Shown here: positions 5,702-62,074 of the stretch, one piece after another
Layout of the letters: each line of letters opens with the position of its first letter
Position numbering within the stretch: position 1 is the first letter of the stretch
Assembly (NCBI GenBank): GCA_045587125.1
Contig: JAZNBN010000006.1
Span: 1,118 to 65,117, forward strand
Length of the DNA stretch: 64,000 bases
Direction of reading: 5' to 3'
Source: Candidatus Enterousia sp.
GTDB lineage: Bacteria > Pseudomonadota > Alphaproteobacteria > Rs-D84
Program-made: the position numbers and the translations under genes
The notes under the pieces: model-generated
The model's input: the letters and a program-made list of their open reading frames with translations, nothing else
Told to the model about the DNA's origin: nothing
Databases searched by the model: none

Positions 5702-5950
5702 ATGACCACAGAAAACAACCAGAATTTTTTTGATTTCAGAGAATTAATATACATTATCTATAATGGTATGGCCACAGGCGGAATCGTCAATTATACCAAT
5801 CAACTTATTGATAACGGTTACAATCGTGAAACCCTTATTATTTTATTGATGTGGATTGCTGGATTCGCCTATTCTGCAAATCGTTTATACGACATATATA
5901 AAACCAAAAAAGAGAATCAGAACAATAAACACAACCAAAACCAAAGATAA
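5702..5950 (+). CDS. hypothetical small membrane protein
   Basis: 82 aa ORF with one hydrophobic segment (LIILLMWIAGFAYSA) and a basic or Asn/Gln-rich tail. It is followed by a hairpin. No family recognised. Confidence 0.45.
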   Translation: MTTENNQNFFDFRELIYIIYNGMATGGIVNYTNQLIDNGYNRETLIILLMWIAGFAYSANRLYDIYKTKKENQNNKHNQNQR

Positions 5951-19440: not shown

Positions 19441-20709
19441 ATGACACGACCACTTGCAGATTTAATGCGTCCAAATACAATTGATGATATTGTCGGACAA
19501 ACGACATTATTGGGTGAAAACGGACTGGTCCGTCGTATGGTAGATAATAAAAAATTATCTAATTTAATTTTATGGGGACCGCCGGGGTGTGGAAAAACAA
19601 CCATTGCACGTGCATTGGCAAATTCTGTTGATATGGATTTTGTCCCTATGTCCGCTGTATTTTCTGGCACAGCCGACATTAAAAAGGCAATGGATGCTGC
19701 GCGCATGAATCGTGATATTGGTCGCAGCACGTTGTTATTCATAGATGAAATTCATCGCTTTAATAAAACACAACAAGATACATTATTGCCTTATTTAGAA
19801 GATGGCACAGTTGTATTTATGGGTGCGACCACTGAAAACCCCAGTTTTAATTTAAATAACGCATTGTTATCCAGATGTCATGTTGGTGTATTATCCGCCC
19901 TGTCCACCGAAGACCTGTTAATTTTAATAAAACGTGCCGAAAAATTCTTGGATAAAGAATTACCATTAACAGATGATGCACGCACACATTTGGCCCAGAT
20001 GGCAGACGGCGATGCACGATTTTTATTAAACACAGTTGAATATTTAATCAACGCGAATTTCAAAAAAGAATTATCACCAGACGAACTGGATAACGCTGTA
20101 CAAAAACGTGCCCCGATGTCTGACAAACATGGTGATGAACATTATAATTTAATATCTGCATTGCATAAATCCCTGCGGGCCAGTGATACAGATGCTGCAC
20201 TTTATTGGGCGGCACGCATGATGACGTCTGGCCAAGACCCAATGTATATTTTCCGCAGATTGACACGTTTTGCAGTTGAAGATGTTGGACTGGCAGATCC
20301 CAACGCATTACAAATCGCAATTTCCGCATGGCAGGCATACGAACGTCTTGGCAGTCCTGAGGGTGATTTAGCCCTGACACAATTGGTGATATATCTTGGC
20401 ACTGCACCGAAAAGCATTGGAAATTATCGTGCACAAAAATCGGCATACGCATCTGCCAAATCCACAGGCAGTTTAATGCCGCCAAAAAATATCTTAAACG
20501 CACCGACAAAATTAATGCGTGACCTGGGATATAACGAAGGTTACATTTATGACCCAGATACAGAATCCGGATTTTCTGGACAAAACTGTTTTCCGGACGG
20601 AATGCCACGCCAGAAATTTTATATACCTGTGGAACGTGGATTTGAACGTGAAATAAAAAAACGTCTTGATTACTGGGACGGATTACGTAAAAAGTTAAAC
20701 AAGAAATAA
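19441..20709 (+). CDS. rarA: replication-associated recombination protein A (AAA+ ATPase)
   Basis: 422 aa with Walker A GPPGCGKTT, Walker B LFIDEIHRFNK and a MgsA C-terminal domain (HYNLISALHKSLRASDTDAALYW). Confidence 0.92.
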   Translation: MTRPLADLMRPNTIDDIVGQTTLLGENGLVRRMVDNKKLSNLILWGPPGCGKTTIARALANSVDMDFVPMSAVFSGTADIKKAMDAARMNRDIGRSTLLFIDEIHRFNKTQQDTLLPYLEDGTVVFMGATTENPSFNLNNALLSRCHVGVLSALSTEDLLILIKRAEKFLDKELPLTDDARTHLAQMADGDARFLLNTVEYLINANFKKELSPDELDNAVQKRAPMSDKHGDEHYNLISALHKSLRASDTDAALYWAARMMTSGQDPMYIFRRLTRFAVEDVGLADPNALQIAISAWQAYERLGSPEGDLALTQLVIYLGTAPKSIGNYRAQKSAYASAKSTGSLMPPKNILNAPTKLMRDLGYNEGYIYDPDTESGFSGQNCFPDGMPRQKFYIPVERGFEREIKKRLDYWDGLRKKLNKK

Positions 20710-20733
20710 AAACGCCCCATTGGGGCATTTTTT
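20709..20733. terminator. hairpin between convergent rarA and an OMP gene
   Basis: aaaacgccccattggggcattttt: a gcccc/ggggc stem flanked by an A-run and a T-run. Confidence 0.7.
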
Positions 20734-20737
20734 ATTT

Positions 20738-21475
20738 TTAGAACAAAATATTCACCTGGGCACCGAACTGAATTTCATCACTTTCAAATTCATAATCAAT
20801 ATGTCCGACATATTGTGTGCGCCCATATTCACGAACTAATTTTGTATGCAACCATTCCTGGTCATAATCAGTTCCCTTGTATGGATCTTTACTGGTTGCC
20901 TTGCGAATTGTGAAACCTGCACCAAATCTCCAATCTGGGGCAATTCTGAAATAAGATTCCGGCGTAAAGTCAATAAAACTTACACCACGCAAATCATCAA
21001 ATACCCAATTTGATTTGATTGTTGCGGCCAACGTCAAACCTGCCCATTGACGTCCAAAACGCAACCCTGCGTAATATGTTGAATCCGCATAGTACGGTGT
21101 ACGAACGTGTGAACTGCCCCCGACTTTGAATCCCAACAATAAATCAGAGATCAAATTTGATTCTGTATCACCTGGTCGTCCCATACGGTACACTGCACCG
21201 AAATCTATGGCAGAAAAACCATCTTCATCACCATTAAAGTGATGTTGATAATGAACATTTGCACCAATACTTAGACGGCTGTTCATACCATAAGAAAAAC
21301 TTTGCCCTGCCCGTAAAGTATGATCCCAATACGCAACAGACGTTTTAGTTAAGACTTCTTCTGCCGCCTGCAAAAACAACGGATCAGACGTATCACGTGA
21401 TAAATCATTTGCAGACGATGCAAAAGGCATAGTAAACACCCCTGCAATTAAACAAACAGATAAAAATTTATACAT
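20738..21475 (-). CDS. outer-membrane beta-barrel protein (245 aa)
   Basis: Has a signal peptide (MPFASSA), alternating amphipathic beta-strand pattern, aromatic girdle residues and a C-terminal Phe (VNILF). Confidence 0.65.
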   Translation of the reverse strand: MYKFLSVCLIAGVFTMPFASSANDLSRDTSDPLFLQAAEEVLTKTSVAYWDHTLRAGQSFSYGMNSRLSIGANVHYQHHFNGDEDGFSAIDFGAVYRMGRPGDTESNLISDLLLGFKVGGSSHVRTPYYADSTYYAGLRFGRQWAGLTLAATIKSNWVFDDLRGVSFIDFTPESYFRIAPDWRFGAGFTIRKATSKDPYKGTDYDQEWLHTKLVREYGRTQYVGHIDYEFESDEIQFGAQVNILF

Positions 21476-28109: not shown

Positions 28110-28182
28110 ATTCTCTCTTAGGTTCAATTTTATCATAAACCCCACATTATTGAAAGTAAAAAAATGAATGATTTTACTCTAT

Positions 28183-28281
28183 CACTGTGATTAGCGAAAA
28201 AATTAAAGATAATGGTATAGATAAGCGGGTTGGCAATGGCGTAGTGTACAGAAGTTACATGAGTGCTTTACCCCACCCCGT
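28183..28281. repeat. nested-hairpin repeat, copy 1a (left arm, variable module and apical stem present; right outer arm missing; decayed)
   Basis: cactgtgattagcgaaaaaattaaagataatggtatagata + agcgggttggcaatggc + gtagtgtacagaagttacatga + a partly complementary right module. It abuts copy 1b directly. Confidence 0.8.
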
Positions 28282-28398
28282 AATTAGCGGAAAAATTAAA
28301 GATAATGGTATAGATACGCACAAACCCGACATCGTAGTGTACAAATGCTACATGAGATGTCGGGTTTGTGTGTAGATATGCCATTAGATTTAATTTTA
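28282..28398. repeat. nested-hairpin repeat, copy 1b (complete)
   Basis: Hairpin 28292-28397. The outer arms pair over 25 positions with two tandem G.A/A.G mismatches and one G.U. The inner stem is 17 bp (cgcacaaacccgacatc / gatgtcgggtttgtgtg). The apical stem is gta(g)tgta / tacatga. The right end overlaps the ftsK stop codon. Confidence 0.9.
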
Positions 28399-40757: not shown

Positions 40758-40785
40758 AAAAAAATCCCCCACTTGGGGGATTTTT
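40758..40785. terminator. ATCCCCC-N4-GGGGGAT terminator between convergent genes
   Basis: aaaaaaatcccccacttgggggattttt. Confidence 0.75.
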
Positions 40786-40804
40786 CAAGGACGGAAACTG
40801 ATTA

Positions 40805-41950
40805 TTATTCCGTTGTGGTGTTTTCCAGTAACTTCCAACCCATAAACGTATATCCTGGCTTTACTGGGTCGGATGGAACGGTAATACTGCCTTCATACGT
40901 ACATTGATTGATTGTATGTGCACCATTATTATCTGGGTTCCAATCAATATTAATTGTGTTAGCCGCACATGTGGCAGGTGACACAGGCAGACTGTTCATT
41001 ACCGCAGTACGGAACGTGCGATAGTACACGCCATCGGCCTGCAGGTTGCTCACACAGACGTCCGCGCAATTGGACGCGCAATCATAATCCGTATCTTCGT
41101 TGCTGTTGAACACCCACGGGGCAGATGTAACTATTACTTTGTCGCCACCAGTTGGGGTAAAGCCATCAACCTGACAATAACAATATTGTGCACCTTCAGC
41201 ACCCGTTTCATCGGTCAGGGTGTCTACAATAGTGATTTCCCCGGCAGTACTTGTGTTCCAATCAAATTCTCTTACCCCTGGTTGCGTGCTGCAACGGCCA
41301 TGGCCCGTTATCATGCCTTTGTCGCCATAGGCGGACGCAAATGCCATCGGGTCGCCTGCAATACCCGCATCAGATGATGTCAGATTATAAGACACACCTT
41401 GATTTCCGTTGTTATCGTTAGATGTATATCCAGTGCCGACGTCTTCACCAATTGTTTCACCTATATCCAATCCTGGTTTTACGTGCCATCCGGCAACGCA
41501 TGCCGTTGGTTCGCACGTGTCAACCCCACTGCCATAGTAATCGTTACCCGTTACCGCCGTTGCATGTGCTATGTTTGCCGTTGCAACCGTACATGCTGTA
41601 TAACATTGTGTGTCTGCACCTGAACCTTCGGCACTGTTTGGGTATTCGGTTGGACATTGGGCGATACTGTTGTCCGCCGTTTCAACCGTGAATCCACCAC
41701 CAACGCAGTATGAACCCGCGGGGCATGTTGTTTTGTCCACAGATGTTTCTGTTACGCTTAAATATTGACCAGGGTCCAATGTATAATCTATCAAATCCCA
41801 TGTCGCGATTGTATTTGCCGTGGCGTTATTGTCCGATACGCCCAATACATCAACCGTACATGTGTTCTCACTGGTTATTATTTTATCGGCACCGAATGCA
41901 GGTGCAATAAACGTTCCCATTAATGCGGTGGTTAAAAAATATTTTTTCAT
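40805..41950 (-). CDS. Cys-rich surface/secreted protein, paralog A (C-terminal Listeria-Bacteroides-type repeat)
   Basis: Start at MKKYFLTTALMGTFIAPAFGA (ATG 41948-41950, RBS ggaaaggg). Contains a CPAGSYCVGGG motif and the C-terminal PVKPGYTFMGWK (GYTF.GW repeat). It is a paralog of 47684-48811. Confidence 0.7.
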   Translation of the reverse strand: MKKYFLTTALMGTFIAPAFGADKIITSENTCTVDVLGVSDNNATANTIATWDLIDYTLDPGQYLSVTETSVDKTTCPAGSYCVGGGFTVETADNSIAQCPTEYPNSAEGSGADTQCYTACTVATANIAHATAVTGNDYYGSGVDTCEPTACVAGWHVKPGLDIGETIGEDVGTGYTSNDNNGNQGVSYNLTSSDAGIAGDPMAFASAYGDKGMITGHGRCSTQPGVREFDWNTSTAGEITIVDTLTDETGAEGAQYCYCQVDGFTPTGGDKVIVTSAPWVFNSNEDTDYDCASNCADVCVSNLQADGVYYRTFRTAVMNSLPVSPATCAANTINIDWNPDNNGAHTINQCTYEGSITVPSDPVKPGYTFMGWKLLENTTTE

Positions 41951-41978
41951 TTCCCTTTCCTTTTCGTTATAAAAAAAC

Positions 41979-42015
41979 AATCACCTTAATGGCATGGTAT
42001 GCTATTAAGGTGATT
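41979..42015 (-). promoter_or_regulatory. leader hairpin plus U-run (terminator/attenuator-like) upstream of paralog A
   Basis: aatcaccttaat..attaaggtgatt: a stem of about 12-17 bp. In the mRNA sense it is followed by TTTTTTT and lies about 30 nt before the ATG. The same element is conserved at 48839-48875. Confidence 0.5.
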
Positions 42016-42022
42016 ATTCAAC

Positions 42023-42044
42023 AACGCAAACGTACGTTTGCGTT
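42023..42044. promoter_or_regulatory. perfect 22-bp palindrome in the paralog A leader
   Basis: aacgcaaacgt|acgtttgcgtt. The arms are conserved at 48883-48903, where the centre differs. Confidence 0.5.
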
Positions 42045-42056
42045 AAATGTTTTTAA

Positions 42057-42072
42057 CTCTCTCTCTCTCTCT
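42057..42072. repeat. (CT)8 / (AG)8 dinucleotide microsatellite in the paralog A leader
   Basis: Counted directly: 8 CT units here versus 7 at the paralogous position 48916-48929. Confidence 0.9.
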
Positions 42073-42150
42073 AGATTTCTGCGGAATTTTATCATTTTTT
42101 CCTTCGCTTTTCCCTGATTACCTGAATTTTATCACAAACCACACATTATT

Positions 42151-42216
42151 AAAAGCAGAAAATTAAATAGAACAGTTTAGATGTGGAACGGCCCCGATAA
42201 CGTAGTGTACAAACGA
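42151..42216. repeat. nested-hairpin repeat, copy 2a (degenerate and truncated)
   Basis: gcagaaaattaaa..tag..gtggaacggccccgataac + gtagtgtacaaacga. It is truncated within the apical loop and abuts copy 2b. Confidence 0.6.
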
Positions 42217-42335
42217 CACGATTAGCAGAAAATTAAAGATAATGGTATAGATACGCACAAACCCGACATCGTAGTGTACAAATGCTACATGAGATGTCGG
42301 GTTTGTGTGTAGATACGCCATTAGATTTAATTTTT
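42217..42335. repeat. nested-hairpin repeat, copy 2b (complete)
   Basis: The inner and apical parts are identical to copy 1b. There is one substitution in the right arm (tagataCgcc). The trxB stop codon (42327-42329) lies inside the right arm. Confidence 0.9.
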
Positions 42336-47400: not shown

Positions 47401-47615
47401 GTCATTGCGAGCGAACGCGTGGCAATCCAGTCATTCTTCTTCCTTGTCATTCTGGGGCTTGACCCCAGGACCCAGGTTTGGCCTTAGTATTTAAAGGAAA
47501 GATGACCTAGGTTCTGGGGTCAAGCCCCAGAATGACAAAAAATTTACAATTTTTTTCTATTTGGTTCGCTTTGCTCACACTTCTTAGTCCCAACCCCTGC
47601 CTTCGCAGGGGTGAC
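47401..47615. repeat. cluster of GC-rich GTCAT/GTCAC-hairpin mini-palindromes, including a 23-bp inverted pair (MITE-like)
   Basis: gtcattgcgagcgaacgcgtggcaatccag (47401-47430). gtcattctggggcttgaccccag (47446-47468) has a perfect inverted copy at 47514-47536. gtcacccctgcgaaggcaggggttggg lies on the minus strand (47589-47615). These are much more GC-rich than their surroundings. Confidence 0.8.
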
Positions 47616-47637: not shown

Positions 47638-47664
47638 AAAAAAATCCCCACCTGGGGGATTTTT
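47638..47664. terminator. ATCCCC-N4-GGGGAT terminator after paralog B
   Basis: aaaaaaatccccacctgggggattttt. It is part of the block duplicated with 40758-40785. Confidence 0.75.
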
Positions 47665-47683
47665 CAAGGACGGAAACTGATTA

Positions 47684-48811
47684 TTATTCCGTTGTGGTAT
47701 TTTCCAAAAGTTTCCATCCACTGAACGTATATCCTGGCTTTACTGGATCTGCTGGTACTTCAATCGCACCTTCATATGTACACTGATTGATTGTGTGTTT
47801 ACCACCATTATCCGGATTCCAGTCAATATTGATTGTGTTCGCCGCACATGTGGCAGGTCCATCAACAGTCCCAAATACTGCAGCACGGAATCCACTACTG
47901 TATGTAGCAATGTAACACAGGCGATCTGCACAGAACAGTGGGCAAGTTGAAGCGCACCCATTACCTGTTGAGCTATCACCGAGGAATACCCATGGTGCAG
48001 CTACGATAGGGGTGCTTTCGCCATCCGCACTTTTATAACCATCTAGCTGACAATAACAATATTGTGCGCCATCCGCACCAGTTTCATCTGGCCAATTATC
48101 TGCAATAGTTGGGTCAGTCCAAGTATTATCATTATTGTCGCCCGCCTGTGTACTGCAACGACCACGCCCAGTTATCATGCCTTTGTCTCCATAAACAACC
48201 GCAAATGCCATTGGTTCGCCTGCGATACCCGCATCAGAAGGAGTTATAGATATGTTAGCTTTTTTGGTACCAGTGTTATCATTACTTGCCCATCCTGTAC
48301 CTGTATCTGTTGTGCCAATTGTATCGGTCAGATTCAATCCTGGTTTTACGTGCCATCCGGCAATGCACGCCGTTGGTTCGCATGTATCAACCCCACTGCC
48401 ATAATAATCATTACCGGTAACCTTTGTGGCCTTCGCAACCATATCAACTGTACATGCGGTGTAACACTGGGTATCGGCGGACGCACCGTTTGCAGAATTT
48501 GGATATCCCGTTGGACATTGGGCGATACTGTTGTTCGCCGTTTCAACCGTGAATCCACCACCAACGCAATATGATCCCGCCGGACAGGTTGCCTTGTCCA
48601 CAGATGTTTCTGTTACGTTCAGATATTGCCCGGGATCCAATGTATAATCTATCAAATCCCATGTTGCAATCGTGTTGGCGATTGCATTATTATCGGACAC
48701 GCCCAATACATCAACCGTACATGTATTCGCACTGGTTATTATTTTGTCGACACCGAATGCAGGTGCAATAAACGTTCCCATTAATGCGGTGGTTAAAAAA
48801 TATTTTTTCAT
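47684..48811 (-). CDS. Cys-rich surface/secreted protein, paralog B
   Basis: Start at MKKYFLTTALMGTFIAPAFGV (ATG 48809-48811). The N-terminal ~130 aa and C-terminal ~60 aa are nearly identical to paralog A. The central region is divergent. Confidence 0.7.
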   Translation of the reverse strand: MKKYFLTTALMGTFIAPAFGVDKIITSANTCTVDVLGVSDNNAIANTIATWDLIDYTLDPGQYLNVTETSVDKATCPAGSYCVGGGFTVETANNSIAQCPTGYPNSANGASADTQCYTACTVDMVAKATKVTGNDYYGSGVDTCEPTACIAGWHVKPGLNLTDTIGTTDTGTGWASNDNTGTKKANISITPSDAGIAGEPMAFAVVYGDKGMITGRGRCSTQAGDNNDNTWTDPTIADNWPDETGADGAQYCYCQLDGYKSADGESTPIVAAPWVFLGDSSTGNGCASTCPLFCADRLCYIATYSSGFRAAVFGTVDGPATCAANTINIDWNPDNGGKHTINQCTYEGAIEVPADPVKPGYTFSGWKLLENTTTE

Positions 48812-48838
48812 TTCCCTTTCCTTTTCGTTATAAAAAAT

Positions 48839-48875
48839 AATCACCTTAATGGCACGACATGCCATTAAGGTGATT
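48839..48875 (-). promoter_or_regulatory. leader hairpin plus U-run upstream of paralog B
   Basis: aatcaccttaatggcacgacatgccattaaggtgatt, followed by TTTTTT in the mRNA sense. The arms are identical to the paralog A copy and the loop-proximal bases differ. Confidence 0.5.
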
Positions 48876-48882
48876 ATTCAAT

Positions 48883-48903
48883 AACGCAAACATAGTTTGC
48901 GTT
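48883..48903. promoter_or_regulatory. palindrome in the paralog B leader
   Basis: aacgcaaac-ata-gtttgcgtt. Confidence 0.45.
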
Positions 48904-48915
48904 AAATGTTTTTAA

Positions 48916-48929
48916 CTCTCTCTCTCTCT
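48916..48929. repeat. (CT)7 / (AG)7 microsatellite in the paralog B leader
   Basis: Counted directly: one unit shorter than at paralog A. Confidence 0.9.
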
Positions 48930-49021
48930 AGATTTCTGCGGAATTTTATCATTTTTCGCACTTTTTTCCCTGTTTTCTTGCCTGAATTATATCATAATTA
49001 CAAAAAACACACAAGACAGTT

Positions 49022-60446: not shown

Positions 60447-60468
60447 TAAAAACAAATTCCTACCTTTC

Positions 60469-60498
60469 GAAAAATCCCCGATTGGGGATTTTTTTTAT
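60469..60498. terminator. ATCCCC-N4-GGGGAT terminator
   Basis: gaaaaatccccgattggggatttttttt, between convergent secB and the 237-aa gene. Confidence 0.8.
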
Positions 60499-60507
60499 AA
60501 ATAAAAA

Positions 60508-61221
60508 CTAATGTTGTTTGATTTTATAATACAGTTCTATTACCTGTTTTTGTAATTTTTCATCTTTAATTTTTTGCATGGTATATTTAAACATTTCTTG
60601 TTCTGTTTTTTCACTCATACCATACAACAAATACATAATCATCGTGGACAATTTGGATTCAATACCATATTTTTCACGAAACAAAACTTGAAATTTCAAT
60701 GCGCGTGAAACCAGTGAAGGTTCCGTATACAACGTATCTATCTTATTATTCAAGACACGATAATTTGCCAATTCTATTGTTTTGTTTGACGTAAAACCAT
60801 AAAAAGGTGCCGCCGCCAAAATTTGCTGTGTTTTATTATAATAAAAAATAGAATTACAATTAAAATCAAAATACTGACCAACAATCATATCTGGCCAATC
60901 AATTTCTTTATTAAAAATATCAACTTCTGGGAATTTTTTTAAACCCAACTTTGTTCCACCAAAAGAATTTTGTTTTACATAAATAACATTCGGATTATTT
61001 TGCAAATCTGGTTTTTGCGATAATATTAAATCAATATCTTTTGATTCTGTTTCTTTGCCGACCAATTTTCCCAAGACCGCATCACGCACAAACCCACCAA
61101 CCGCAAAAACATCTGTATTTTTGGGCAAATTTAAATCATTAACAATTCCATCAACCACCGGGGCAATTTTTAATGTTGCCCCACGAATTGCTTTTTCAAC
61201 ATCTTCCAGATACCATCTCAA
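60508..61221 (-). CDS. short nucleotidyltransferase with a poly(A) polymerase/CCA-enzyme head-domain motif
   Basis: 237 aa. VFAVGGFVRDAVLGK...KDIDLIL fits GG.VRD.LLG....D.D. There is no recognisable tRNA-binding tail. The only start available for the full ORF is TTG at 61221, so the start is uncertain. Confidence 0.55.
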   Translation of the reverse strand: MRWYLEDVEKAIRGATLKIAPVVDGIVNDLNLPKNTDVFAVGGFVRDAVLGKLVGKETESKDIDLILSQKPDLQNNPNVIYVKQNSFGGTKLGLKKFPEVDIFNKEIDWPDMIVGQYFDFNCNSIFYYNKTQQILAAAPFYGFTSNKTIELANYRVLNNKIDTLYTEPSLVSRALKFQVLFREKYGIESKLSTMIMYLLYGMSEKTEQEMFKYTMQKIKDEKLQKQVIELYYKIKQH

Positions 61222-61232
61222 AACACACCCCG

Positions 61233-61352
61233 CACGTGATTAGCAGAAAAATTAAAGATAATGGTATAGATAAGCGGGTTTAAGATGACGTAGTGTACAT
61301 GACGTTACATGAGACATCTTAAACCCGCTTAGATATGCCATTAGATTTAATT
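61233..61352. repeat. nested-hairpin repeat, copy 3 (complete, different inner module)
   Basis: The outer arms and apical stem match copies 1b and 2b. The inner stem is agcgggtttaagatgac / gacatcttaaacccgct (16 of 17 paired). It lies between the yebC stop (61358) and the start of the 237-aa gene (61221). Confidence 0.9.
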
Positions 61353-61357
61353 TATTT

Positions 61358-62074
61358 TTATGCAGCGGCTGTGAACACCTTCTGCACATCATCATTTGCA
61401 TCCAATGCATCAACCAGTTTTTCCAGTTTTGCATATGCTTCATCGTCCAAATCCATTGGCATATTTGGCAACCAAGTCAATTCTGCCTGTTCTGGTTCAC
61501 CCAACACATCTGCCAGATATTTTTGTACAGTGATGAAATCTTCTGGTTTTGTTGTGATAATAAAACCTTCTTCGGATGTTTCCAGGTTATCTGCATTTGC
61601 ATCCATAATAATTTCCATCATTTCATCTTCGGTTTTACCGATTGATGCCGGATACATGATTTGACCTGCACGTGTAAACATAAACACAACAGAACCTTCT
61701 TCGCCCATATTTCCGCCATTTTTACCAAATATATTGCGGATTTCTGGCACTGTACGACGTGGGTTATCAGTCAATGCTTCTACGATAACAGGCACGGCAC
61801 CTGGGCCATAACCTTCGTATCTAACTGCTTCGTAACTTTCTGTATTTGCCCCAGATGCCTTTTCAATTGCGCGTTTGATATTATCATTTGGCATTGAATT
61901 TTTGCGCGCTGTCAAAATTGCCAAACGAAGTCTTGGATTGTTGTCTGGGTTTTTATCACCTAATTTGGCAGCCATAGTAATTTCACGTGCCAATTTTGTA
62001 AACAAACCACTGCGTGCAGCGTCTGCCGCACCTTTCTTGTGTTGAATGTTATGCCATTTACTGTGTCCACTCAT
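61358..62074 (-). CDS. yebC: YebC/PmpR-family transcriptional regulator
   Basis: MSGHSKWHNIQHKKGAADAARSGLFTKLAREI is the canonical N-terminus. Confidence 0.93.
   Translation of the reverse strand: MSGHSKWHNIQHKKGAADAARSGLFTKLAREITMAAKLGDKNPDNNPRLRLAILTARKNSMPNDNIKRAIEKASGANTESYEAVRYEGYGPGAVPVIVEALTDNPRRTVPEIRNIFGKNGGNMGEEGSVVFMFTRAGQIMYPASIGKTEDEMMEIIMDANADNLETSEEGFIITTKPEDFITVQKYLADVLGEPEQAELTWLPNMPMDLDDEAYAKLEKLVDALDANDDVQKVFTAAA

Follow-up and report, generated by a model that had tools for sequence, protein, structure and literature searches.

What is the long hairpin that recurs at the stop codons of housekeeping genes in the gut alphaproteobacterium Candidatus Enterousia, and why does it always lie the same way round? 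The question arises from a stretch of 64,000 nucleotides of assembly GCA_045587125.1 (contig JAZNBN010000006.1, positions 1,118 to 65,117; hereafter the window), in which the hairpin stands at the ends of ftsK, trxB and yebC. We read it, at a probability of about 0.55, as a new ERIC-like family of non-autonomous hairpins that is co-transcribed at gene 3' ends, where it would work as a terminator or insulator and as a ribosome-sensitive stability element.

Three complete units of 104–105 nt each lie in the window, along with two half-units upstream of complete ones. All five copies are found where the initial annotation had placed them, in a single orientation. A covariance model built from 83 members of the family recovered exactly three complete units, with scores of 106–115 bits on the + strand versus 52–55 bits on the − strand, and no further complete unit in the 64 kb. 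Folding energies of the complete units are −52 to −64 kcal/mol for the + strand (z = −12 to −14.5) and −40 to −45 kcal/mol for the − strand. Given these z-scores and the recurrence of the hairpin in dozens of genomes, the copies are not a product of chance. Their parts are as follows.

28183–28199, + strand: flank module F of half-unit 1 (cactgtgattagcgaaa), the conserved 5' flank found before most units in many genomes.
28200–28263, + strand: half-unit 1, with left arm 28200–28223, middle 28224–28239 and tip 28240–28263, and without a right half.
28264–28292, + strand: junction and flank F of complete unit 1, a C-rich run and a small hairpin (ccgtaattagcgg), then an A run.
28293–28396, + strand: complete unit 1 (114.6 bits in the covariance model; fold −63.9 kcal/mol, z = −14.5).
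28293–28356: left half of complete unit 1, with left arm 28293–28316, middle 28317–28332 and tip 28333–28356.
28357–28396: right half of complete unit 1, with middle' 28357–28372 and right arm 28373–28396.
42160–42215, + strand: half-unit 2, of the sister 'l' arm type, with arm 42160–42182, middle 42183–42200 and left tip half 42201–42215, interrupted within the tip loop.
42216–42229, + strand: flank module F of complete unit 2, in a shortened form (acacgattagcaga).
42230–42333, + strand: complete unit 2 (111 bits; 99% identity to unit 1).
61224–61248, + strand: flank module F of unit 3 (cacaccccgcacgtgattagcagaa).
61249–61353, + strand: complete unit 3 (106.1 bits).

Unit 3 has the arms and tip of the other units, and its middle stem is unrelated to theirs yet fully complementary. 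Half-unit 1 has no stable fold by itself (z = 0.2). Half-unit 2 had been taken for a decayed copy; it belongs instead to a different arm dialect from the first copy. The FtsK, TrxB and YebC identities of the neighbouring genes stand, and so does the trxB stop within the right arm of unit 2 (42327–42329, − strand); the ftsK stop (28396–28398, − strand), which had also been put inside the arm, overlaps only the final base of the right arm of unit 1. The yebC stop (61358–61360, − strand) lies 4 nt past the arm of unit 3. All three genes lie on the − strand, and the strand that folds better is thus their antisense, a correction to the strand view of the initial annotation.

The family is widespread among relatives of the source genome. 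The exact left-arm 19-mer occurs in more than 116 stretches of a species-representative genome collection, and about 80 of these are true elements. They come from at least 34 species-level metagenome-assembled genomes (MAGs) labelled Candidatus Enterousia or gut Alphaproteobacteria. Enterousia belongs to the order Rs-D84, whose genomes measure 0.75–1.0 Mb at a coding density of about 90% (PMC12306168). The literature that we searched on Enterousia and on the tip motif does not describe the hairpin, and a search with the tip sequence returned only bunyavirus termini and primers. Rfam gave no match at gathering score in the window, only chance microRNA-like ones at E ≥ 0.28.

Eighty-four distinct full units were available for comparison, 83 of them 103–106 nt long. 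All are built from the same modules: a flank (F), left and right arms, a middle stem and a tip, with G.A and G.U pairs at fixed places. The flank consists of a C-rich run and a small hairpin with TTGC, TAGC or GATTAGC, followed by an A run. The arms occur in two dialects. In the L/R dialect, AAAT[TA]AAAGATAATGGTATAGATA pairs with TAGATATGCCATTAGATTT[AT]ATTT; in the l/r dialect, AAAT[TA]AAT[TA]AGAATGATTTAGAT pairs with TAGATGAATTATTATA[TA]TT[TA]ATTT. Hybrids of the two also exist, and in these the pairs co-vary. The middle stem (16–18 nt) differs among copies but is always complementary, and its approximately ten major types are unrelated to one another and common to several species. The tip is near-invariant, reading CGTAGTGTACA, 5–7 nt, then TACATGAG. 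Drawn as a structure, it is closed by a C-G pair and continues with an internal loop GUA/GA, a G.U pair, a stem UGUA(C)/(G)UACA and a loop of 5–7 nt. This drawing replaces the apical stem with a bulged G of the initial annotation.

The pairing itself is conserved and compensated across the family. RNAalifold predicted 37 pairs, with compensatory double changes in 20. Across the alignment, 96.8% of cells are paired, compared with 81.1% in shuffles (none of 500 reached the observed value) and 30–42% in slid controls. The mismatches are strongly one-sided. In the arms of 83 distinct copies, G.A fills 301 cells against one for C.T, and G.T fills 97 against 15 for A.C. These copies bore out what had been noticed earlier in the window: tandem G.A mismatches at fixed places, the G.U pair and four AGAT motifs in the same sense. 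The odd-pair positions are fixed in both arm dialects. In 81 of the 83 units, the top strand is more stable than the bottom strand. In the variable middle stem, by contrast, G.U and A.C intermediates are about equal (approximately 30 vs. 34, counted from the pair table). One unit among more than 200 departs from the plan: L004, approximately 150 nt downstream of a yebC homologue, has normal arms and middle and an inverted tip (CTTATGTAGCTTCTGTACACTGCG). This suggests a flip by recombination between the arms, and a tip orientation that is normally kept.

Placement relative to genes is equally strict. A convergent open reading frame (ORF) lies at the right end in 82 of 89 scorable units. In 77 of the 89, its stop codon begins between −15 and +5 nt relative to the right arm's end, at a constant relative orientation, which extends to many genomes the insertion context seen at the three genes of the window; in 22 units the arm itself supplies the stop, as TAA. 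Some left arms likewise begin 0–7 nt past the stop of a convergent gene. In a census of junctions, elements occupied 39 of 79 convergent junctions, 19 of 149 gene-strand tandem junctions, 3 of 64 opposite-strand tandem junctions (none of them reversed) and 0 of 66 divergent junctions; the choice of loci inflates these rates, while the contrasts between junction types are unaffected. There were no reversed elements at 175 opposite-strand gene ends, and arrays that share one locus are all oriented alike. Local GC skew is negative in the orientation of the element in 84 of 84 units. Judged by this skew, which is confounded with gene direction, the well-folding strand would always be on the C-rich, lagging strand, with the G-rich strand presumably the leading one.

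Units stand singly or in arrays. An array consists of half-units (flank, left arm, middle, tip) followed by one complete unit next to the gene, and the right half is confined to that gene-proximal unit. The points at which half-units are cut vary. They fall within the tip loop (42215/42216 in the window), immediately behind the tip, or as far as 13 nt into the right middle stem. Plain tandem duplications are also present among the arrays (L106 and L099). At the trxB end, the type seen as half-unit 2 in the window is the full gene-proximal unit of a close relative (L019), which agrees, though weakly, with arrays that gain new units on the gene side.

Different units occupy the same gene ends again and again. 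The yebC end carries an element in 19 of 20 related loci, and the ftsK and trxB ends are occupied in many species. Middle-stem types and even arm dialects differ among species at orthologous gene ends, with at least eight different middle stems at the yebC end among 13 species. Between species, the right arm is 94–97% identical, flanking coding DNA 76–85% and the middle stem 45–55%. Presence varies as well, since the trxB end is empty in L297, and L062 keeps a short remnant.

At some of these sites, the element and an ordinary terminator replace each other. The window gene at 20738–21475 ends in a plain bidirectional terminator (AAAAACGCCCCATTGGGGCATTTTT, 20705–20732), as does secB (60468–60495), and in other species an element stands at both places. 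The ftsK end of L105 has a plain terminator instead of the element. Plain bidirectional terminators of approximately 28 nt, of the form AAAAAAATCCCCC-NNNN-GGGGGATTTTT, occur in the window at 5949, 20705, 40758, 44753, 47282, 47637 and 60468; two terminators of this family are at sites bearing the hairpin element in other species. On each strand, the hairpin unit itself presents an A run, a long hairpin and a T run. Both arrays of the window have a promoter-like motif (below) after them in the direction of the gene, and the next gene comes straight after unit 3; the element can therefore sit between transcription units or inside one. On the − strand, the G-rich complement of the unit 3 flank lies 5–6 nt ahead of the TTG start of that gene (60508–61221) and may act as its ribosome-binding site.

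Two further features lie beside the arrays of the window.

28126–28151, − strand: first copy of a promoter-like motif, AATAATGTGGGGTTTATGATAAAATT with the extended −10 TGATAAAAT, close downstream of array 1 when read in the direction of the gene.
42125–42150, − strand: the other copy of this motif, downstream of array 2 when read in the direction of the gene.

These 26-nt motifs are nearly identical and are the only two in the window, where none is expected by chance. Both precede genes of unknown function that are unrelated to each other, and related motifs (TTGAAATGGGGCGTTTTTTGTGATAAAAT) lie beside arrays in other MAGs. The motif may travel with the element, or it may be a common strong promoter.

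The tip reaches beyond Enterousia. A metagenome search that demanded the exact tip motif returned at least 120 stretches, and about half of the matches listed are of the Enterousia type. The rest are long imperfect hairpins with unrelated arms, from bacteria of 33–66% GC, and fall into several recurring classes. They are intergenic and lie beside unrelated housekeeping genes, with a convergent gene at the right end in 22 cases vs. 9; no neighbouring protein family is shared among these non-Enterousia hairpins. The top strand folds better in 58 of 71 of them. Rfam 15 had no match for the metagenomic classes (14 metagenome loci). The exact motif is absent from the viral contig collection, and an arm 16-mer had only chance matches, for which reasons we rejected a phage origin.

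Class 1 of the metagenomic hairpins led to Escherichia coli, where it matches a chromosomal repeat of approximately 146–150 nt (nhmmer E = 1e-8 to 1e-6) that occurs at a median of five places per genome (5426 genomes). The tip of the copy in the ucpA-cysP spacer (L359, ER1709) reads CC-GGAG-CGTAC-ACATA-GTACG-TGAG-G, near-identical to that of Enterousia, with U-A in the stem replaced by C-G as a compensatory change. Like the Enterousia unit, this repeat is a dispersed intergenic hairpin, and the two are linked through the class 1 hairpins, which bear the exact Enterousia tip. In contrast to the Enterousia unit, it has unrelated arms (E = 2.9), greater length and many internal loops. Besides ucpA-cysP, it occurs at 4–7 other places. 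In the copy examined, a plain terminator stands between the repeat and the stop codon. K-12 carries the repeat, of approximately 146 nt, at 2543529–2543831 without a RefSeq annotation. It is probably the 'RSA' repeat of the K-12 record, a name that we assign from the fit of length and copy number (PMC5172473).

The resemblance extends in design to ERIC (approximately 127 bp), an imperfect palindrome that is, like the Enterousia unit, most conserved at its centre. That centre, CCCCAG-GA-GCUUAC-AUAA-GUAAGU-GA-CUGGGG, repeats the plan of the tip: a stem, tandem G.A, a G.U-closed stem of 5–6 bp and a short A-rich loop. The stem is CUUAC/GUAAG in ERIC and UGUAC/GUACA in Enterousia. When the three tips are compared, two of the five stem pairs co-vary (C-G/U-A and U-A/G-C) and UAC...GUA is constant. 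The strand asymmetry is also alike, with the same strand favoured in ERIC (−50.5 vs. −36.1 kcal/mol), and the right end of the ERIC copy that we examined lies 1–2 nt from the stop of ybhI, on the other strand. Short arm motifs of ERIC recur in classes 1 and 3 (left, CAAGGCG; right, AACGCAGCA-ATGC), although nhmmer with ERIC found no statistical match to these classes. The match between the ERIC and Enterousia tips is a likeness of design and does not prove homology. The earlier statement that no named family matches holds for Rfam and calls for revision in view of the ERIC tip design, the E. coli repeat tip and the fixed orientation at stop codons that is reported for ERIC in Yersinia.

Our preferred reading, the ERIC-like 3'-end element, suggests the following course of events. 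With the gene on the presumed leading, G-rich strand, the unit would always be transcribed together with the upstream gene, at the very start of the 3' untranslated region (UTR), as the weaker-folding strand with C.U and C.A in place of the odd pairs. The RNA hairpin may then serve as a terminator or insulator between convergent or tandem genes. A ribosome on the stop codon could melt the A/U-rich base of the hairpin and expose the distal A/U-rich arm, which would make the element a ribosome-sensitive determinant of stability. These roles are suggested by the position of the hairpin, the replacement of terminators at orthologous sites and published ERIC biology. They also narrow the choices left by the initial annotation. 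A non-autonomous hairpin in the 3' UTR or intercistronic space stands, and the terminator or insulator gains indirect support from the plain terminators at orthologous sites; an sRNA (small RNA) precursor is unlikely because there is no conserved promoter and some left arms begin 0–7 nt after a convergent stop.

Two filters acting together might account for the occupation of G-rich-strand gene ends only. One would bar the strongly folding strand from the lagging-strand template, in keeping with the palindrome instability that Trinh and Sinden reportedly described in 1991. The other would bar that strand from mRNA that abuts a stop codon, given that REPs within 15 nt of stop codons stall ribosomes. 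That the arms and tip are better conserved than neighbouring coding DNA may mean that some factor recognises them, or that the repeats still spread or convert one another. Half-units might arise when the right half is lost, on addition of a further unit or by palindrome-driven deletion; otherwise they could be aborted copies.

Several observations weigh against this reading. No transposase or other partner was found in the flanking DNA searched. [quoted passage not shown] The link to ERIC would consist of the tip design and a chain through the metagenomic classes: nhmmer with an E. coli ERIC copy found no arm similarity in the Enterousia and metagenome loci, its sole match being a true ERIC in an unrelated locus (L084). 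The apparent identity of tips is inflated because the search required the exact motif. Orientation relative to replication is judged only from local GC skew, with its confounding by gene direction. A consensus scan for intrinsic terminators, defined by a G+C-rich stem with a U run immediately behind it, called none at the element, owing to the A/U-rich base of its stem. We infer termination, processing and ribosome sensitivity alike, and it would be odd, for an element that functions in mRNA, that every fixed non-Watson–Crick pair favours the other strand.

Two other explanations put the top strand at the centre. One is mobilisation as single-stranded DNA in the manner of REP/REPIN or IS200/IS605, in which an HUH (Y1) enzyme would recognise the tip of the top strand, the orientation would be fixed through insertion or excision coupled to the replication fork, and effects on transcripts would be a by-product. 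REPs carry a 5' GTAG, and the tip reads GTAG plus a 5-bp hairpin. The fixed odd pairs all favour one strand, orientation tracks GC skew in every one of the 84 units with no reversed copy at opposite-strand gene ends, and subfamilies turn over at fixed sites, all as such a mechanism would have it. Half-units and tandem clusters have their likeness in the singlets of REP and the clusters of REPIN, and REP arrays too are oriented by replichore (PMC3116915). We nevertheless regard it as unlikely. The search for a cognate RAYT/IS200-type TnpA, which the initial annotation had suggested looking for, found no motif and no tblastn match to E. coli RayT in approximately 1.7 Mb of flanking DNA (about 0.9 Mb of genome loci plus the window, and 0.8 Mb of metagenome loci). 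No inverted-orientation copies flank a gene, the arms lack a palindrome of their own, and the unit has one tip in place of two inverted REPs. Its well-folding strand is on the C-rich strand, presumably the leading-strand template, which is opposite to the IS608 rule, and the genomes are just 0.75–1 Mb. The second explanation has the + (antisense) strand working as an RNA or as a protein-bound single strand, with the G.A pairs and the GUA/GA loop, which can be likened to a bulged-G or S-turn module, binding a conserved host protein. The better folding of the top strand in Enterousia, in the other tip hairpins and in ERIC is what it would predict; the G.A sites are 12 and 21 nt apart, roughly on one helix face, the tip is conserved over unrelated arms at 33–66% GC, and where two genes converge, the top strand forms the 3' UTR of the left-hand one. 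Against this, the spacing from the flank to a −10-like hexamer differs by clade and no promoter is conserved, some left arms start immediately (0–7 nt) after a convergent stop codon, nothing obvious transcribes the top strand in tandem junctions, Rfam has no match and half-units cannot fold. We give it little credence.

The remaining explanation dispenses with function. A purely selfish, slowly decaying MITE could end up beside stop codons because these are the only harmless spaces in compact genomes and because spare spacer is deleted. Differences in presence and absence, remnants and truncated units are indeed common, about 90% of the genome is coding (PMC12306168), stops lie against the left end too in convergent junctions, and divergent (promoter) spacers are avoided as harmful insertions would be. 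It is, however, difficult to square with arms that are better conserved across species than the adjacent coding DNA, with odd-pair positions fixed in two arm dialects, or with orthologous sites that are occupied in up to 19 of 20 related genomes despite exchange of the middle stems. The elements also persist in genomes that are otherwise shrinking. Selfish decay of this kind seems improbable to us.

We rejected four other readings of the unit. A small protein or C-terminal extension was considered because unit 1 has an open frame on the − strand (38 codons, with an ATG in the arm), but frame and peptide differ in unit 3 and in other middle types. A sigma-70 or sigma-54 promoter in the flank module has the wrong hexamer spacing, which also varies by clade. 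A CRISPR- or guide-like middle stem is at odds with only about ten types, common to species, each mirrored in the right half. For dif/Xer-like arms, the left arm agrees with the XerD half-site at 9 of 11 positions; the apparent XerC-side match hinges on one middle-stem type, and the resemblance was treated as chance.

The G-rich strand of the flank module (28262–28279 in the window, and other loci) reads GGGGTGGGG or GGGGGTG. KOPS are G-rich polar octamers, GGGNAGGG, that orient FtsK. The flank resembles them, and if it were one, this would be another reason for a fixed orientation. Elsewhere in the window, at 47443–47539, a different long palindrome (TTGTCATTCTGGGGCTTGACCCCAGGACCCAGGT...) with 34-nt arms that are 94% complementary occupies a convergent spacer between two plain terminators. 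A similar motif (CAAGCCCCAGGATGACA) occurs twice downstream of a paralogous gene in a related MAG locus (L075), and the palindrome looks like a second repeat family. The genes at 40759–42100 and 47638–48956 are paralogues of 391 and 393 aa with approximately 84% DNA identity and a Listeria-Bacteroides repeat domain. Upstream of both lies an identical stretch of 41 nt (42059–42099 and 48916–48956) that combines a TGATAAAAT promoter-like box with a (CT)7 tract; because of this dinucleotide repeat, expression of the paralogues could be prone to slippage.

Among known systems, REP/REPIN elements are extragenic hairpins at gene ends, with decayed singlets, tandem clusters and arrays oriented by replichore (PMC3116915). 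The REPIN shares with the Enterousia unit conserved ends and a less conserved yet complementary spacer (PMC3116915), and both have GTAG beside a hairpin. A REPIN consists of two inverted REPs of 20–40 nt, each with a palindrome and a 5' GTAG, and its genome has a cognate single-copy RAYT gene that the repeats usually flank. Unlike a REPIN, the Enterousia unit has one GTAG-plus-hairpin tip, arms without a palindrome of their own, no inverted doublets and a single orientation. attC sites, such as the Vibrio VCRs, are also imperfect palindromes of approximately 120 nt that follow cassette stops in a single orientation, with strand-specific unpaired bases, a variable centre and conserved ends. We rejected an attC identity, as the unit termini are AAAT[TA]AAAG and CTTT[AT]ATTT without GTTRRRY/RYYYAAC cores, no integrase was seen, and the flanking genes are scattered housekeeping genes (ftsK, trxB, yebC, secB and others) rather than cassettes. 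Correia/NEMIS elements of Neisseria and RPE of Rickettsia are likewise co-transcribed hairpin repeats of approximately 100–150 bp in compact or host-associated genomes, and Correia elements provide terminators, promoters and RNase III sites (PMC10969869). Neither has a visible sequence relation to the units, and Correia has long terminal repeats with TA duplication. RPE was rejected because it inserts in frame within protein or RNA genes, while the units are intergenic, with the arm supplying at most the last 1–2 codons and the stop of a gene, and the frames through the unit vary by copy.

ERIC is the closest counterpart. It lies at gene 3' ends, is co-transcribed, acts in an orientation-dependent manner and contains an unmaskable RNase E site in its 3' arm (PMC2229807, PMC10969869). 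It differs in its TA termini and TA duplication, and in a host range of Enterobacteriaceae and Vibrionaceae rather than Alphaproteobacteria. Exchangeable middle stems, half-unit arrays capped by a full unit and the flank module of the Enterousia units are not known for ERIC. De Gregorio et al. reportedly found in 2005 that Yersinia ERIC copies on or beside stop codons share a fixed orientation. For ERIC too, we know of no mobilising enzyme. A more ambitious view, which we hold to be doubtful, would unite ERIC, the E. coli repeats of approximately 150 nt, the Enterousia units and the metagenomic hairpins in one pan-bacterial superfamily whose tip docks a single trans-acting factor and whose copying involves snap-back. 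The shared tip would be C-G, G(N)A/GA, G.U, a 5-bp stem ending in UAC...GUA and a short loop, and one factor would serve hosts from Enterobacteria to Alphaproteobacteria with 0.8-Mb genomes. Half-unit arrays would then record synthesis of the top strand, from the flank to the right arm, aborted at the snap-back of the tip, which would imply a single-stranded DNA or complementary DNA intermediate rather than cut-and-paste. If so, the factor should be encoded among approximately 900 genes, within the reach of phylogenetic profiling.

For 35 years ERIC has served in typing while its enzyme and role remain unsettled, and a relative in compact Enterousia genomes would narrow the search for a partner protein. 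Dozens of species, genomes of approximately 900 genes, a near-invariant tip, exchangeable middles and strict placement all favour such a search, and the elements offer a natural experiment on how hairpins at stop codons affect termination, ribosome release and mRNA decay. For annotation, they mark gene ends, supply the stop codon in 22 of 89 units and replace plain terminators at some sites; their tandem half-units can confuse the assembly or alignment of these MAGs. The Enterousia hairpins are a new family of a known kind, the ERIC-type miniature intergenic hairpin repeats. What sets the family apart within that kind is its exchangeable middle stems, its half-unit arrays, its strict placement and orientation, the very small genomes of its hosts and a tip held in common with distant bacteria.

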